25,942 bases of DNA from a virus. Taxonomy: Duplodnaviria; Heunggongvirae; Uroviricota; Caudoviricetes. Position numbers and translations under genes: made by a program. Under the pieces are notes generated by a model. It was given only the letters and a program-made list of their open reading frames with translations, did no database searches and had not been told where the DNA came from. Positions 8,890 to 17,893 of the stretch are shown piece by piece; the stretch's first letter is position 1, and the number at the start of each line of letters is the position of its first letter. The DNA lies in IMG/VR virus record IMGVR_UViG_2563366768_000033; one strand, written 5' to 3'.

Positions 8890-9759
<870 letters not shown>

Positions 9760-10486: not shown

Positions 10487-11230
10487 ATGGCAACTACATG
10501 TTCAGTTATATTGATTTTGGAGTCCTTTGATGTTTATTTCGGAAAAGAGAGTGTGTTTCTGGAGAGAGGTTCATCTGTACTTGTCGACTCTAGCTCTAGA
10601 GATTTTTTCCTGACATATCCTGAAAGAGTGATAGTGGCGGATTTTGGCGCTGAGTTTATTAGTCGCTATTTGAAAGCTAATAACTTAAGGGATATTTCTG
10701 ATTGTAGGGAATATCCATCTTATTTAAAAATAAACTTTGCTGACTTCAGTTTAATTAAAGGATTAATTAGTTGGGCTAATCACTGTGCTGAATACATAGA
10801 AATTTTTGATGAGTCTATTGCTTTTACATGTCTCTCTGCATTTTCTTCTGAAAAACAATTTGGAGTATTTCTGTTTGGATGTTTGAAAAGCACAGGGGCT
10901 AAAGTTAAAACGATTATTCATACGGATTTATCTGCACCATGGCGTCTTAAGGATATATCATCAAGATTATATCTCAGCGAAAGTTTACTAAAGAGGAAAT
11001 TGAAAGAAGAGGGGGTATCATTCAGTAAGATCATACTTGATGAGAGGATGCAAATGGCTGAATATTTACTCAGCACTCGTTGTTATCCTATTAGTAAAGT
11101 AGCTAAGGTCTGTGGTTATGCCAGTGTCTCATACTTTACTTATGTATTTAGACGTTATTTTGGTGTTTCTCCAAGTCAATACTCTCAGAGGAGTTCAGAA
11201 AGTAAAATTCTTACTCACCAGGGAATCTGA
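10487..11230 (+). CDS. AraC/XylS-family transcriptional regulator (AppY/Rns-like)
   Basis: 247-aa product with C-terminal dual HTH (WRLKDISSRLYLSESLLKRKLKEEGVSFSKIILDERMQMAEYLL...KVAKVCGYASVSYFTYVFRRYFGVSPSQY); AT-rich gene and upstream region; GGGGG Shine-Dalgarno before the ATG. Confidence 0.75.
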   Translation: MATTCSVILILESFDVYFGKESVFLERGSSVLVDSSSRDFFLTYPERVIVADFGAEFISRYLKANNLRDISDCREYPSYLKINFADFSLIKGLISWANHCAEYIEIFDESIAFTCLSAFSSEKQFGVFLFGCLKSTGAKVKTIIHTDLSAPWRLKDISSRLYLSESLLKRKLKEEGVSFSKIILDERMQMAEYLLSTRCYPISKVAKVCGYASVSYFTYVFRRYFGVSPSQYSQRSSESKILTHQGI

Positions 11231-12192: not shown

Positions 12193-13374
12193 ATGCCTTT
12201 AAACGATATGCAGATTCGCCGCGCTAAGCCTGAAGCTAAAGCCTATACATTTGGAGATGGGCTAGGGTTGTCATTACTTATAGAACCTAATGGAAGCAAG
12301 AGTTGGCGGTTCCGCTATCGCTATGCCGGCAAACCCAAAATGATCTCGCTTGGTGTTTACCCAACGATCACCCTTGCCGATGCTCGTTCCCGTCGTGATG
12401 AAGCTCGAAAACTTGTGGCAGAAGGAAAGAACCCTAGTGAGGTTCGAAAAGAGCAAAAGCTAGCTATGCAAACAGAGTCAGAGAACGCCTTCGAAAAGAT
12501 AGCCAGAGAGTGGCATCAACTTAAATCTGCTAAATGGTCGGCGGGATATGCATCAGACATCATGGAAGCGTTTAAGAACGACATTTTTCCTTATGTCGGA
12601 ACAAGGCCTGTGGGAGAGATTAAACCGCTAGAGCTGCTGAACGTTCTGCGTAAAATTGAGAAACGTGGTGCGTTGGAGAAAATGCGCAAAGTGCGGCAGC
12701 GTTGCTCCGAAGTGTTTCGCTACGCAATTGCAACGGGTAGGGCGGAGTACAATCCTGCGGCTGATCTCTCCAGCGCTCTCGAAGTACACCAATCCAATCA
12801 TTTCCCATTCCTAAAAGCTGATGAGATACCTGATTTTCTACGTGCCTTAGAGGGTTACTCCGGGAGTAAGCTTGTCCAGATAGCCACGAAATTACTGATG
12901 ATTACGGGTGTGAGAACCATCGAATTACGCGCGGCATTATGGCAAGAATTTGATCTGGATAACGCTATTTGGGAAATTCCTGCTGAAAGGATGAAAATGC
13001 GTAGGCCACATCTTGTGCCCTTATCATCTCAAGCGGTAGATTTACTCAATGAACTCAAGATCATGACAGGGAACTATCGTTATGTTTTTCCAGGGCGGAA
13101 CGATCCGAATAGGCCAATGAGCGAAGCGAGTATAAATCAAGCCATTAAGCGTATTGGGTATGGAGGAAAAGTCACTGGACATGGTTTTCGTCATACCCTT
13201 TCTACAATCCTGCATGAGCAAGGTTTTGAGAGTGCTTGGATTGAAATCCAGTTGGCTCATGTAGATAAAAATTCTATTAGGGGGACTTATAACCATGCTC
13301 AATATTTTAGTGGAAGGAAGTCTATGATGGACTGGTACAGTAATTTGATATTTGAAAGACTAAAAAGGAGTTAA
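12193..13374 (+). CDS. P4-family tyrosine integrase
   Basis: From ATG at 12193: MPLNDMQIRRAKPEAKAYTFGDGLGLSLLIEPNGSKSWRFRYRYAGKPKMISLGVYP... (P4/CP4-57-type N-terminus) with C-terminal catalytic region HGFRHTLSTILHEQG...RGTYNH; the ORF track's upstream extension is not used. Confidence 0.9.
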   Translation: MPLNDMQIRRAKPEAKAYTFGDGLGLSLLIEPNGSKSWRFRYRYAGKPKMISLGVYPTITLADARSRRDEARKLVAEGKNPSEVRKEQKLAMQTESENAFEKIAREWHQLKSAKWSAGYASDIMEAFKNDIFPYVGTRPVGEIKPLELLNVLRKIEKRGALEKMRKVRQRCSEVFRYAIATGRAEYNPAADLSSALEVHQSNHFPFLKADEIPDFLRALEGYSGSKLVQIATKLLMITGVRTIELRAALWQEFDLDNAIWEIPAERMKMRRPHLVPLSSQAVDLLNELKIMTGNYRYVFPGRNDPNRPMSEASINQAIKRIGYGGKVTGHGFRHTLSTILHEQGFESAWIEIQLAHVDKNSIRGTYNHAQYFSGRKSMMDWYSNLIFERLKRS

Positions 13375-13377
13375 TTT

Positions 13378-13794
13378 GTGTCTCAACCACTTTCGGAAAT
13401 ATTGACATGGGATGATGAACAATGGGAGGTATTTGTCCATGATTGGCTTATTGTCTGTAAATCAGATGATTACCCGTGGAGCGAACGTTTGGGAGGAGCT
13501 GGAGATAAAGGTAGAGACGTTGTTGGATATAAATCGGATCCTAACGTAGAAGGTTATTCTTGGGATAATTATCAATGCAAACTGTACAAAAAAAGTTTAG
13601 GGTTCTCTGATGTTGTAGTTGAGTTTGGAAAACTTATCTATTTTACTCTGAATGGTGATTATCCCATCCCTCAGAAGTACTTTTTTGTGGCACCCTATGA
13701 TTTATCTACTACATTTTCTAATTTATTGAAAAATAAAAACGAGCTTAAAAAAGCAGTCCTTGATTCATGGGATTCAGCAATTTCAAAAAAATAA
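13378..13794 (+). CDS. cargo gene 1, N-terminal part: Mrr-like PD-(D/E)xK nuclease domain (frame broken at A7 tract 13785-13791)
   Basis: GTG start 7 nt after AAGGAG (13365-13370) and 4 nt after the int stop; product contains GGAGDKGRDVVGY...(17 aa)...YQCKLY, the GxGDxGxD / QxK pattern of Mrr-type nuclease cores. Very AT-rich. Confidence 0.6.
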   Translation: MSQPLSEILTWDDEQWEVFVHDWLIVCKSDDYPWSERLGGAGDKGRDVVGYKSDPNVEGYSWDNYQCKLYKKSLGFSDVVVEFGKLIYFTLNGDYPIPQKYFFVAPYDLSTTFSNLLKNKNELKKAVLDSWDSAISKK

Positions 13795-14384
13795 CTAAAA
13801 AGATTGATATTCCATTAGATGATGAAATAAAAAAATATATTGAGGATTTTGATTTTAGTATTTTTTACTCTCTACCCTTATCATTGATTTTAAATGATAT
13901 TGCAAATACACACCTTTATTTTAAGTACTTTAACGAGCTGTATGTCGTGAGAATCCCTCCAAATGAAATTCCAACATACAATTCAAAAAAAGAGTCTGTA
14001 TATGTTAATGCACTGCTTCAAGCCTATTCAGAGCATGGAAATAAAACTTATAGTTCTTTCTTAGAGCTTGATGATCCATACAGACGACACTTTAATAATA
14101 GTAGAAATGATTTTTATTTTGCATCTTCGCTTGAGGTTTTTGTCCGCGAAGTATTTAAAGATGATGTATTCAAAGCATTGAAATGTTACATTTCATCTTC
14201 AATTGAACCCGTCTTTTATGAAGACCATAATTATGCATTTATTAGGTGTAATGCAGTCTTGAAGCAGGCTGTTCTGACACCAATTGCACATTCAGTACTA
14301 TCAAAAATATGTGAAGCAAATGATAAAAAAGGAATATGCCATCATTTGGTTAATGATGGTGAAGTAATTTGGACGGTGAGATAA
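13767..14384 (+). CDS. cargo gene 1, C-terminal part (unknown domain); probably the continuation of 13378-13794
   Basis: This frame is open from 13764 and overlaps the previous ORF's end across an A7 run; one extra A would join them into a single ORF of about 336 codons. Stop TAA at 14382-14384 overlaps the next ATG. Confidence 0.55.
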   Translation: MGFSNFKKITKKIDIPLDDEIKKYIEDFDFSIFYSLPLSLILNDIANTHLYFKYFNELYVVRIPPNEIPTYNSKKESVYVNALLQAYSEHGNKTYSSFLELDDPYRRHFNNSRNDFYFASSLEVFVREVFKDDVFKALKCYISSSIEPVFYEDHNYAFIRCNAVLKQAVLTPIAHSVLSKICEANDKKGICHHLVNDGEVIWTVR

Positions 14385-14842
14385 TGGTTAGAATTTATAA
14401 TTCAAGTTTAGAAGTGGCATGTCGAATGGCGAAAGTGCTCGTCGCTATTTATCCTTCTTCATTAAGCCTTGAACGGCTTATTTGTTTTGATTTTATTTTA
14501 GTAAATCTTAAGGATTTTTTACCTGAAGAGATTAGTCTTCATCCTCCAATACCCCGTAGAGATGCTCAGTTAGCCCTAAAACGAGAGATTGTTTTAGAAT
14601 CATTGGCTTTGTTGCAAGGCTATGAACTAGCCTCAAAAATTTATACACATCGTGGTTTTGTATATAAAGCTTCTGAAAAAACATATGCATTTACAAATTC
14701 TCTACATAATGAATATGTTGCGCAGATGGAGCATAATATAAATTTGGTGGTTAAGTTATATAGTGATATTCCTGATGAGCAGTTGCAATCAATTATAAAA
14801 AATAAAATTGGCAAATATGATATGGAATTTAATTATGAATGA
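14384..14842 (+). CDS. cargo gene 2: small protein (152 aa), predicted mostly helical; candidate middle component
   Basis: ATG at 14384 overlaps the upstream stop (TAATG); product MVRIYNSSLEVACRMAKVLVAIYPSSLSLERLICFDF...; its stop overlaps the next gene's ATG (ATGAATGA). Confidence 0.6.
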   Translation: MVRIYNSSLEVACRMAKVLVAIYPSSLSLERLICFDFILVNLKDFLPEEISLHPPIPRRDAQLALKREIVLESLALLQGYELASKIYTHRGFVYKASEKTYAFTNSLHNEYVAQMEHNINLVVKLYSDIPDEQLQSIIKNKIGKYDMEFNYE

Positions 14843-15467
14843 CAATTTTTTTACGTTCAGAAAAATAAAGGTAACCGGATTCAATAAATTAGATGCTATA
14901 ATTGAATTTGGTTCTAAATTGACTATTTTATATGGTGGTTCTGACTCTGGAAAAACATACATATATTATTTGATTCGATATTTATTAGGGAGTGAAAAAC
15001 TAAAAAATAAAGATATCGATCATGCTCAAGGTTATGATTTAGCCTATCTGGAATTTAATTTTCAAGGTAGGGTAATGACAATTGAGAGGTCTCTTCAGGA
15101 TAGCGCCCATTACAGATTATATGATTCGAGCATTGAAAATGTTAGTGAAGCTAATCTGTTGATGGTTTTTTCCAAAAGTGCTTCGTCTAAAAAGAGTTTT
15201 TCATCATACTTTTATGGTAGGTTGAATTTCAAAGAGGCTAAAGTAAGAACAAACTTAAGTAATACTCTTCATAAATTTAATCTTAATAATGTTTTTGAAT
15301 TTTTTTGTATTGATGAATTAAGAGTGTTAACTGAGAAGTCGTTAATTCTTTCTGATATTCCTAGCGAGGAGACAAAAAGAAAGTCTGAATTTAAATTCCT
15401 TTTAACTCAGAGAGATGATACTAACTCCTTAGCAGAAAAACCAAATAAAAAAGCAAGATATTTTTAA
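14835..15467 (+). CDS. cargo gene 3, N-terminal head of an SMC/Rad50-like ABC ATPase (Walker A); ends at an in-frame TAA
   Basis: MNDNFFTFRKIKVTGFNKLDAIIEFGSKLTILYGGSDSGKTYIYYLIRYLLG: classic SMC/RecF-type N-terminus with Walker A GGSDSGKT. The ORF stops at TAA 15465-15467 inside a T5A7 tract while the same frame stays open downstream. Confidence 0.7.
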   Translation: MNDNFFTFRKIKVTGFNKLDAIIEFGSKLTILYGGSDSGKTYIYYLIRYLLGSEKLKNKDIDHAQGYDLAYLEFNFQGRVMTIERSLQDSAHYRLYDSSIENVSEANLLMVFSKSASSKKSFSSYFYGRLNFKEAKVRTNLSNTLHKFNLNNVFEFFCIDELRVLTEKSLILSDIPSEETKRKSEFKFLLTQRDDTNSLAEKPNKKARYF

Positions 15468-16088
15468 AAAAATCAAATTGCAAATATTTATGAGGAATTG
15501 AAAGCGCAATTAATTTATCCTGAATATGATCAAGTCATTGTTTCAAGAGAACTTGAGAAAGTAGAGCAAGATATTGAATCATCGAAAGATATATTGAAAG
15601 GTATTGTTGATGCACTTGATGATAAGAAGCAATTATTAAAAGAGTTAAGTGATGAATTATATTCAATCAGTGACAGGGAAAAATACTTATCATTACTCAT
15701 TGAAAGATTTAGTCTTCTTAAAGACCAATACTTTATAGATCTACAAAGAATAGATGTTGTATCACAGGCGAATTTCTATTTAAATAATTTTGCAGATATT
15801 TATTGTGAGTTCTGTAATACACCGCAAAAAAAAGAAAATGAAATATCATATGATGATTGTTTTTTGTCGTGTAATGCAGAAAAATTGAAAATCAAAAGCC
15901 AGCTGAAAGGATTAATTGAATCAATCGGATCTAATGTTCGCGAACATGAATTAATTATGTTAAGAAAAAATGATGTTAATGAAATTTATCAATCAGAAAA
16001 AAGTGATTTTAAGACGTTAGAAGATAAAAATATAAAACAATACATTCATCTCTTGAATCACTTTATGAATATAAAGACAATCTTTTAA
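15468..16088 (+). CDS. cargo gene 3 continued: coiled-coil segment with CxxC...CxxxC zinc-hook-like motif
   Basis: Same frame as 14835-15467, open right after the TAA, with no ATG for about 150 codons (the ORF track uses TTG at 15498). Heptad-like charged/leucine-rich sequence and YCEFCN...(14 aa)...CFLSCN (15804-15872). Confidence 0.55.
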   Translation, partial: KNQIANIYEELKAQLIYPEYDQVIVSRELEKVEQDIESSKDILKGIVDALDDKKQLLKELSDELYSISDREKYLSLLIERFSLLKDQYFIDLQRIDVVSQANFYLNNFADIYCEFCNTPQKKENEISYDDCFLSCNAEKLKIKSQLKGLIESIGSNVREHELIMLRKNDVNEIYQSEKSDFKTLEDKNIKQYIHLLNHFMNIKTIF

Positions 16089-16654
16089 TGGATCACACAA
16101 AACATAGCATTCTATCTTCATTACAAGATAAAGAAGATGATGTTGACGAACTTAAATACTCCGCCGAGGACTTTGACTCCTTAACAGTAGCTGATTTGTA
16201 TGATATAGAAATAGCGATGCAAGACTTTTTGAATGATATAAATTTTGAAAATTCTAAAGATAACAAAGTGCGATTTGACGAAGATACATATGACTTTAAT
16301 ATCAATGGGAAACGCCGAGGAATGTTTGGTAAAGGTACCCGTGCAGTAATGCATGCTATATTTACCATTTGCTTTGCGGAATTTTTATCAAGAAAAGGGA
16401 ATCCATTCATTGGATTTGTTGTGCTTGATAGTCCATTAGTGACGCACTTTGATAAAGATAGAGGGGGTTCTCTATCGGATGTTAATAGCGTCAGTCTCAG
16501 TGATTCATTTTATCACGCATTAATCAAAAGGGACTATAATTTCCAGATTGTAATTCTTGAGAATAAAGGTCCGACGTTCCAAATAAAAATTAATGATGCA
16601 AATAAAATCCATAACTTAAATAAGAATGGAAGCTCTGGTTTTTATCCTGTTTAA
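16088..16654 (+). CDS. cargo gene 3, C-terminal ABC head segment (Walker B-like FIGFVVLDSP), separate ORF or frame-shifted continuation
   Basis: ATG overlaps the upstream stop (TAATG); product contains ...GKGTRAVMHAIFTICFAEFLSRKGNPFIGFVVLDSPLVTHFD, i.e. a run of hydrophobics ending in D as in Walker B, with Ser where the catalytic Glu normally sits. Confidence 0.55.
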   Translation: MDHTKHSILSSLQDKEDDVDELKYSAEDFDSLTVADLYDIEIAMQDFLNDINFENSKDNKVRFDEDTYDFNINGKRRGMFGKGTRAVMHAIFTICFAEFLSRKGNPFIGFVVLDSPLVTHFDKDRGGSLSDVNSVSLSDSFYHALIKRDYNFQIVILENKGPTFQIKINDANKIHNLNKNGSSGFYPV

Positions 16655-17063: not shown

Positions 17064-17336
17064 TCAGACAGGAATTTGCTGACGGCTTGACAGCTTTGAC
17101 GCGGAGCCATAGCGATTGAGAGTTTGCTGTTGTTTTTCCGGCATTTGTGCTTTCTCTGATTCCTGTTCATTGCGCCGGGGCTTCATGATTATCGTATCCA
17201 CACTTTCCAGTGCGGTAAATGTGTAGGAACATTCAAGATTCTGGCACTGATACCATGAGCGTTTAACCGATGGTGCTTCATAGGCGGAGGTTCTGGCGTG
17301 TGCCGTCGTACCGCATTCGGGACATTTAAGTGCCAT
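17064..17336 (-). CDS. Ogr/Delta-family zinc-finger late-gene activator (90 aa)
   Basis: MALKCPECGTTAHARTSAYEAPSVKRSWYQCQNLECSYTFTALESV: CxxC...CxxxxC arrangement and sequence typical of P2 Ogr / P4 Delta. Confidence 0.85.
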   Translation of the reverse strand: MALKCPECGTTAHARTSAYEAPSVKRSWYQCQNLECSYTFTALESVDTIIMKPRRNEQESEKAQMPEKQQQTLNRYGSASKLSSRQQIPV

Positions 17337-17341
17337 TAATA

Positions 17342-17893
17342 TTACTCCTGCATGCCGTTAATGTAATCCAGACGTTGCTGAAAGCGCAGTTGTTGTGCAG
17401 GGGTGTAAGAGCTCTGGCAATCACGAACCATCATGGGGTCAGGCATCACACCGGATTCATCCAGAATCATACGATAATCCCCGGCAATTTCAGGCGGTGT
17501 TATTGCCAGCTGGCGAACCAGAGCATTGCGTAATATACGGGACGCAACGTCAACCCCTCCGCGCCCCTTCAGGAACGGAGCCAGTGCAGATGTCAGGGCT
17601 GCTCCATTCGCCTGCATAAAATTGCTGAGAGCGTCTTCTGTGCAGGCCTCCATCAGTTGATGCTGCGAGTAAATGCATTCGCGCGCAGCACAGTTAATTT
17701 GCCATTTCAGCACATCCAGATGTTCCCGCTGTAATTCGAGCTGTCGAGCATAATCTGCTGGTTTTTCCATGGCAGTGAGGAGTGATTCTATCTGTTGTTC
17801 AACGGCTTTTCGGCTCTCACTATGTCCAGCCCACAGAATACGGGCATTTCTAAAACTGATAAGCGCTTGGTCTGGAGTGACTCGGGCCATCAT
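17342..17893 (-). CDS. Psu-like protein (P4 polarity suppression / capsid decoration family)
   Basis: 183-aa product with ...DVLKWQINCAARECIYSQHQ...NFMQANGAALTSALAPFL, resembling recalled P4 Psu (...VRKWQVNQAAGRYI...DFMQQHGTALAAALAP...); start overlaps the upstream gene's stop (ATGA). Confidence 0.7.
   Translation of the reverse strand: MMARVTPDQALISFRNARILWAGHSESRKAVEQQIESLLTAMEKPADYARQLELQREHLDVLKWQINCAARECIYSQHQLMEACTEDALSNFMQANGAALTSALAPFLKGRGGVDVASRILRNALVRQLAITPPEIAGDYRMILDESGVMPDPMMVRDCQSSYTPAQQLRFQQRLDYINGMQE

Follow-up and report, generated by a model that had tools for sequence, protein, structure and literature searches.

Is the interrupted SMC-like ATPase gene of a P4-like satellite prophage a dead gene, a sequencing error or a gene that is read in some unusual way? 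The question is raised by the viral record IMGVR_UViG_2563366768_000033, a stretch of 25,942 nucleotides (nt) that is referred to below as the window, and it bears on whether the system to which the ATPase belongs is functional. A preliminary description, made from the letters of the window, had reported that the open reading frame (ORF) encoding the Walker A part of the ATPase ends at an in-frame stop codon, and had considered the gene to be either recently inactivated or mis-sequenced at AT homopolymers. We conclude that the locus is very probably a pseudogenised type II ('short') Lamassu, or ABC-3C, anti-phage operon with the gene order lmuA-lmuC-lmuB, carried as cargo by the P4-like element Sp2 and dead in Escherichia coli O157:H7. 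Comparison with intact relatives indicates that the operon carries three inactivating lesions: a deletion in lmuA, and a stop codon and a deletion in lmuB.

Three lesions interrupt lmuA and lmuB

The first ORF of lmuB starts at 14808, or at the ATG at 14835, and ends at 15467 with the TAA codon (15465-15467), which lies within a T5A7 tract. Exactly as had been described, the same frame then remains open for 206 sense codons, up to a second TAA at 16086-16088. At a GC content of ~0.30 and a stop-codon probability of 0.089, a stop-free run of this length would occur by chance with a probability of ~4e-9, and the downstream stretch is therefore real coding sequence. The absence of an ATG from its first part, put at about 150 codons in the preliminary description, holds in kind and needs correcting in extent: the first ATG is exactly codon 164, and the first alternative start, which is the one chosen by the Prokaryotic Genome Annotation Pipeline (PGAP), is a TTG at codon 11. 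The third piece of the gene (16088-16654) occupies a different frame, open from 16028, and the three pieces are collinear on a single PADLOC LmuB profile of 610 positions (Table 1).

A search with the repaired LmuB sequence found 37 relatives. Of these, 26 are single polypeptides of 594-612 amino acids (aa), with 43-87% identity and a query coverage of 97% or more, while eight distant relatives (23-26% identity) measure 611-621 aa. The closest, from Proteus mirabilis (87%) and Pantoea alhagi (75%), are both 606 aa long, as is the E. coli protein after repair. A leucine, in the context F-L-K, stands opposite the stop codon in 10/10 aligned homologues. The alignment with intact homologues that had been proposed as a check thus supports the view that the pieces belong to one gene: the N-terminal head does not as a rule form a separate polypeptide, and the full-length homologues (~594-621 aa) are single LmuB chains throughout.

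The nature of the lesions becomes apparent at the nucleotide level. The intact Proteus and Pantoea loci encode LmuA, LmuC and LmuB proteins of 335, 152 and 606 aa, and across a 3279-nt operon alignment (89% and 79% nucleotide identity, respectively) the only gaps are two single bases missing from E. coli. At the stop site Proteus reads TAT-TTT-TTA-AAA-AAT (T6A6) and Pantoea TTT-CTG-AAA-AGC. Since T6A6 is also read in E. coli O55:H7, the alleles bear out the earlier suggestion of a single substitution, and indicate that the TAA arose by a T>A transversion at 15466 from the leucine codon TTA (Leu211). The change of frame that joins the C-terminal head had likewise been recognised, and it corresponds to one missing A in the run at 16026-16030, where E. 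coli has A5, Proteus has A6 and Pantoea reads GAG-CTG-AAA. Restoring this A yields ...LEDKKYKTIH..., as in the homologues, and brings the protein to 606 aa exactly.

The second gap lies in lmuA, whose disruption the preliminary description had missed, as it had the greater age of the frameshifts and the identity of the system. The intact sequence AAT-AAA-A or AAG-AAA-A has become A7 at 13785-13791, the lost base being T in Proteus and G in Pantoea, and the coding sequence of a 335-aa protein is thereby divided between an ORF of 138 aa and one of 205 aa. LmuA homologues consist of one chain of 325-380 aa. The small lmuC gene between lmuA and lmuB has the same length as in the intact loci. We also considered whether short 'CTD6' gene calls in other loci (145 aa in the Proteus locus L003; 201 aa in the Pantoea locus L005) reflect recurrent disruption of the effector, and rejected this, as the 335-codon ORF is intact there and the calls result from the start chosen by the gene caller. 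Separately, a 344-aa read-archive protein (P0027) combines an MC2 domain with a region that shares 95% identity with the first third of LmuB, which suggests another allele, in which lmuC would have been fused to the 5' part of lmuB by an additional mutation.

The operon is very probably a type II Lamassu

PADLOC profiles match the intact orthologues as LmuA (5.7e-85), LmuC (5.4e-35) and LmuB (~1e-115), and the order LmuA, LmuC, LmuB was found both on the fragments of the window and on the intact orthologues. Pfam searches identified C-terminal domain (CTD) family CTD6 and MC2 (ABC-3C Middle Component 2) in the two genes that precede that of the ATPase, and AAA_23, SMC_N and DUF3732 in the pieces of the ATPase itself. 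The names ABC-3C, DdmABC and type II Lamassu all refer to one kind of system (10.1101/2025.06.23.660979; 10.1101/2025.03.14.643221). Furthermore, a profile of 24 LmuB homologues matched the PDB entry 9hqu at 1.7e-17, over the N-terminal head and from the coiled coil with its CxxC motif into the C-terminal head. It also matched 9uxl and 9ny5, both cited as LmuACB structures in electron cryo-microscopy papers on Lamassu, with Rad50 and SMC heads as the next best matches. The depositors named 9hqu 'DUF3732 domain-containing protein'. Single-sequence searches of the PDB with LmuA, LmuB and LmuC gave no matches, the LmuA profile found nothing credible in the PDB, and NCBIfam holds no model for any of the three proteins.

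The sequence motifs point in the same direction. In the first lmuB piece, the Walker A motif GGSDSGKT (14934-14957) contains K40, and G34, S36, G39 and K40 are invariant in the 24 homologues. In the second, a mid-protein CEFC motif (C324 at 15804-15806, C327 at 15813-15815), both cysteines of which are invariant in the same homologues, aligns with the CxxC of 9hqu and would form a putative zinc hook. The third contains a signature-like GKGTR (16328-16342) and a deviant Walker B/H-loop, LDSPLVTH (16424-16447); G499, K500, G501, R503, D532, S533 and P534 are invariant among LmuB homologues. Thus, the Walker A (Gx4GK[S/T]) and deviant Walker B (FVVLD-S) motifs of the repaired LmuB match those of short Lamassu, for which Gx4GK[S/T] and hhhhD[Q/S/T/E] have been defined (PMC12663957). 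In LmuA, the residues G42, D43, G45, D47, Q66, C67 and K68 are invariant in 30 homologues, two of which (2/30) reach the Pfam Mrr_cat model; on the strength of this GDxGxD...QCK68 core and these matches we read LmuA as a probable Mrr-type PD-(D/E)xK nuclease fused to CTD6.

The organisation seen here is that of the type II or short Lamassu LmuACB systems (V. cholerae DdmABC; Salmonella enterica Tennessee), in which effector, middle component and Rad50-like ABC ATPase follow one another in the same order. LmuB shares with them the Walker A with K40, the deviant Walker B of the form hhhhD-S, the predicted coiled coil with CxxC and the DUF3732-type C-terminal head, and LmuA shares the N-terminal PD-(D/E)xK nuclease with its catalytic lysine at 68 and the C-terminal ABC-3C CTD. 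There are also differences. The present operon belongs to a CTD6/MC2 branch with an Mrr-type nuclease, whereas the experimentally studied systems belong to a Cap4-CTD7/MC3 branch; similarity to the solved LmuACB proteins is visible by profiles only, and lmuA and lmuB are inactivated here. With Rad50/SbcC ABC ATPases, LmuB shares the predicted architecture of head, coiled coil and putative zinc hook, but it differs from them in having no Mre11/SbcD partner, a much shorter predicted coiled coil, a deviant Walker B and a role in immunity. Among close relatives, the Pantoea alhagi-type operons (L005-L007) lie in P4-like satellites between the P4 integrase and ogr/psu, beside proA, as here, while the Proteus mirabilis operon (L003/L004) is found in a different island, near smpB. 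Both the Proteus and the Pantoea operons are free of stops and frameshifts, and their gene lengths are identical to those of E. coli after repair.

By analogy with the studied systems, in an intact operon a Rad50-like LmuB dimer together with LmuC would sequester one inactive LmuA nuclease. The sensing of DNA ends by LmuB, together with ATP, would then release LmuA, and the freed LmuA would be expected to tetramerise, cleave DNA and abort the infection. Related Lamassu defence has been found to require the LmuA nuclease, K40 of the LmuB Walker A, head engagement and the zinc hook (10.1101/2025.03.14.643221; PMC12663957). In the window, the Walker A, the putative hook and the half containing the signature and Walker B lie on three different fragments and the nuclease is cut from CTD6, and we therefore infer that the system does not work in O157:H7. 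Where the 335-aa orthologues have a nuclease effector and CTD on one polypeptide, the window has them apart, and in place of one intact LmuB of ~600-660 aa it has a gene broken by the nonsense codon at 15465-15467 and the -1 frameshift at 16026-30. The locus is therefore the remnant of a Lamassu member, not a working one.

We found no published activity test of this operon in the literature. An inactive P4-hotspot construct from O157:H7 FRIK944 reported by Rousset et al. 2022 (PMC9122126) was considered as a candidate for the same operon and rejected, as it is a two-gene cytidine-deaminase system (pFR98), the sequence of which is absent from the window.

The lesions accumulated stepwise in the O55:H7/O157 lineage

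A 3.45-kb stretch around the stop is 100% identical in the O157:H7 strains Sakai and EDL933, and is present at 99% identity or more in 309/5426 complete E. coli genomes. It has 312 matching places in all; one of these is on a plasmid-labelled record, and one genome has two copies.

To survey the stop site over the 309 records, a 99-nt query was used that begins in more complex sequence; megablast with an 81-nt query that had the T5A7 tract at its centre gave no matches, probably owing to low-complexity masking. The 99-mer with T5A7 is identical in 296/309 records. Its T6A6 counterpart is exact in 10 records, namely seven O55:H7 genomes, FDAARGOS_946 and the O157 strains 493/89 and LSU61, and the O55:H7 strain CB9615 also has T at 15466, together with extra changes nearby. 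Both 1-nt deletions, by comparison, occur in 8/8 E. coli alleles aligned base by base, and 81-mers spanning them match at 99% or more in 309/309 records at the lmuA site and in 290/309 at the lmuB site.

The sorbitol-fermenting clone 493/89 and LSU61 are early branches in the stepwise model leading from O55:H7 to O157:H7. As the deletions are common to O55:H7 and to these early-branching O157 alleles, both must predate the divergence of the two groups and are older than the stop. The T>A change at 15466 belongs to the branch that leads to typical O157:H7, because T6A6 is kept in O55:H7, 493/89 and LSU61. The history accordingly runs from single-base deletions in lmuA and lmuB, before O55:H7 and O157 diverged, to the later T>A change on the way to typical O157:H7, with other lineages adding lesions of their own.

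Such additional lesions are found in several places. 493/89 has the two founder deletions only. At 15997-16002, O55:H7 and O157 strain 2571 have A5, LSU61 has A7 and A6 is found elsewhere, and an 81-mer around this run differs from the window in 19/309 records; some of this variation may be assembly noise, since a single sequencing project supplied several of the variant genomes. A rescue of the frame in LSU61, by the +1 at 15997 together with the -1 at 16026, was considered and rejected, as the +1 leads to an immediate TGA. CB9615 has an extra T near 15299. In some O157 strains, for example O157:H7 M1300706002 (L014 2318-3531), an IS1203 insertion sequence lies inside the first lmuB fragment, and in NCCP 13918 (L010 1293-3448) IS3- and IS5-family elements occupy the expected place of int and the 5' part of lmuA.

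When the E. coli branch was tested for relaxed constraint, no excess of non-synonymous changes appeared (synonymous:non-synonymous 60:20, vs 68:27 for the Proteus branch; Fisher p = 0.73), and the test has little power. The inactivation is probably recent relative to the divergence of the E. coli and Proteus operons, weak as the test is.

Alternative explanations

The pattern as a whole, with secondary lesions that differ among lineages, is that of a dead gene that drifts neutrally, and it excludes a sequencing error, a programmed recoding event or a functioning phase switch. On this reading, probably no functional LmuA or LmuB is made, and the remnants are predicted to drift. Several considerations weigh against it. 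The pseudogene call comes from sequence comparison, and fragments may have residual function; lmuC and every fragment keep clean ORFs, and in most O157 genomes they are PGAP coding sequences (CDSs); transcriptional slippage at the A7 run of lmuA could in principle occasionally restore the effector frame; and the mechanism is taken from Cap4-CTD7/MC3 Lamassu, which the Mrr-CTD6/MC2 operon resembles at the profile level only.

An alternative history would be that inactivation was itself selected, because Lamassu was autotoxic or incompatible with the many lambdoid prophages and the plasmid of the lineage, and that the later lesions were neutral. Related Lamassu systems are toxic on expression and act against plasmids and phages (10.1101/2025.03.14.643221), nuclease and ATPase genes have both been hit while the small lmuC was spared, and defence pseudogenes are reported to be rare in P4 hotspots, so that long persistence is unusual. 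Against this, a pair of 1-nt losses at A runs is what mutation pressure alone would produce in a gene of 30% GC, the escape of lmuC is not significant in so short a gene (459 nt), and no evidence presented here separates selection from drift. We consider a selected loss unlikely. A bolder version, in which loss was a selected permissive step in the O55:H7/O157:H7 ancestor that, by removing an abortive nuclease system triggered by plasmids and phages, let lambdoid prophages (including those encoding Shiga toxin, Stx) and pO157 accumulate, after which the wreck persisted clade-wide against the reported rule that hotspot defences are replaced before decaying, appears to us improbable.

A reversible switch, with homopolymer slippage toggling the defence system on and off, could draw on the fact that each founder frameshift is a change of 1 nt within an A run and that three lengths of the 15997-16002 run occur across the clade. 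The in-frame combination, however, is seen in 0/8 aligned alleles, and the 81-mer with the lmuA deletion is matched at the 99% level or above throughout the 309 records. The +1 at 15997 in LSU61 gives no rescue, runs of 5-7 nt are short for efficient slippage, the TAA substitution cannot be reverted by slippage, and recovery would need three simultaneous reversions. Phase variation therefore seems very unlikely.

There is still less to be said for programmed recoding or a naturally split ATPase, in which readthrough and slippage, or the assembly of three polypeptides, would give a working LmuB. The T5A7 tract and the A runs do look slippery, and the fragment ORFs are clean and are called as genes by PGAP. 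But neither the stop nor the frameshifts occur in any homologue, all of which have single ORFs, and the sites are not conserved, as the Pantoea codons given above illustrate (TTT-CTG-AAA-AGC and GAG-CTG-AAA) and as the absence of the stop from O55:H7 confirms. Moreover, the stop is in frame with its own continuation, so that slippage could not bypass it, the middle piece of lmuB lacks an ATG for 163 codons, and the lesions differ among sister lineages, the opposite of a conserved recoding signal. We regard a working LmuB of this kind as highly implausible.

Finally, sequencing or assembly error at AT homopolymers, with the real gene intact (T6A6, and A6 at 16026), has a negligible probability: all three lesions do lie in or beside A/T runs, the length of which some platforms miscall, and variation at 15997-16002 among the assemblies of one project could partly be assembly noise, but the TAA is a substitution and not a change of length (both alleles have a 12-nt tract), the identical T5A7 99-mer in 296/309 records comes from many laboratories, the deletions recur in 8/8 aligned alleles and in 309/309 (lmuA) and 290/309 (lmuB) 81-mers, and the TTA/TAA split tracks serotype and strain. 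Thus, of the two possibilities raised in the preliminary description, recent inactivation stands and mis-sequencing does not.

Genomic context and annotation of the locus

In Sakai, the feature covering the locus is 'prophage Sp2, P4-like phage'. The window runs from proA and a tRNA-Thr gene through a remnant of Sp1 into Sp2, which itself contains int, a 3.3-kb cassette with a GC content of ~30%, the delta/psu/sid genes and a primase gene that looks intact. The inactivated operon is thus a variable low-GC cassette between int and psu, as is the cargo of the int-psu hotspot of P4-like satellites defined previously (PMC9122126).

Table 1. Coordinates of the inactivated operon, its lesions and the surrounding Sp2 genes in the window
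Feature	Position	Strand	Evidence or remark
P4-type tyrosine integrase, Sp2, left hotspot border	12193..13374	+	Pfam Arm-DNA-bind_3, Phage_int_M, Phage_integrase; Sakai intS
Low-GC cassette (GC ~0.30) between int and psu	13378-16654
lmuA 5' fragment, predicted Mrr-type PD-(D/E)xK nuclease domain (GDKGRD...QCK68), premature end after frameshift	13378..13794	+	PADLOC LmuA PDLC03852 10-140/336, E 9e-41
lmuA 1-nt deletion site, A7 run	13785..13791	+	the one gap that falls in lmuA when the 3279-nt operon is aligned
lmuA 3' fragment, linker and CTD6	13788..14384 (annotated CDS 13767-14384)	+	Pfam CTD6 7.7e-30; PADLOC LmuA 141-333/336
lmuC (MC2), intact, 152 aa	14384..14842	+	Pfam MC2 6e-30; PADLOC LmuC 2.9e-36
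lmuB fragment 1, ABC/Rad50-like head (N-terminal half) including Walker A, ends at TAA	14835..15467	+	Pfam AAA_23, SMC_N; PADLOC LmuB 3-199/610, E 1.3e-49
T5A7 tract with nonsense codon TAA 15465-15467	15461..15472	+	T5 = 15461-15465, A7 = 15466-15472
lmuB fragment 2, predicted coiled-coil arm with CxxC motif of the putative zinc hook	15468..16088	+	PADLOC LmuB 231-412/610
A6 run, length variable among lineages	15997..16002	+	A6 in window and outgroups
A5 run, lmuB 1-nt deletion site	16026..16030	+	the one gap that falls in lmuB when the operon is aligned
lmuB fragment 3, predicted returning coiled coil, then the C-terminal half of the head	16028..16654	+	PADLOC LmuB 428-608/610; Pfam DUF3732 5.3e-05
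P4 delta/ogr, psu, sid; right hotspot border	17064..18642	-	Sakai/EDL933 annotation; Pfam Psu
Sp2 primase gene	20888-23278

Existing annotations capture the locus in part. The Sakai RefSeq record already gives lmuB as one pseudogene (ECs_0293, 14835-16654, 'AAA family ATPase'), with no system name and no history, and leaves the disruption of lmuA unflagged, its halves being listed by RefSeq/PGAP as two normal CDSs (ECs_0290 and ECs_0291). In the PGAP annotation of EDL933 there are three separate lmuB CDSs, and the pieces are likewise ordinary CDSs in most O157 genomes. The five PGAP CDSs (two from lmuA, three from lmuB) are better read as two pseudogenes, and inventories of defence systems in O157:H7 should count no Lamassu here. 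This settles the question with which we began: the defence system appears to be non-functional in O157:H7, and no sequencing error is involved. In addition, the T>A at 15466 distinguishes typical O157:H7 records from the alleles of O55:H7, 493/89 and LSU61.

A 2026 survey of P4 and P2 hotspots (PMC13586616) found that recognisable defence-like pseudogenes make up less than 1% of P4 pseudogenes, and argues that hotspot systems are swapped before they decay. The present locus, kept in all 309 E. coli carriers from O55:H7 to O157:H7, is a clear exception to this pattern. It is otherwise an ordinary, already annotated pseudogene of a known defence family, and changes nothing in what is known of Lamassu or of pseudogenes.

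Several neighbouring genes were also noted. PD-T4-3 is a single-gene defence system, and a 273-aa GIY-YIG protein encoded in the Sp1 remnant (8890-9714, minus strand) gives a full-length PADLOC match to it (E 2.4e-140); the gene looks intact and is probably a working defence gene beside the dead Lamassu. Just beyond the Sp2 primase gene, a second low-GC patch (GC 0.28-0.35) contains a 317-aa ORF (23411-24367, minus strand) that has no Pfam, PADLOC or NCBIfam match and may be additional satellite cargo. Finally, an AraC-family regulator gene (10487-11230; HTH_AraC, HTH_18) occupies a low-GC patch (0.34) at the right end of the Sp1 remnant, before the Sp2 integrase.

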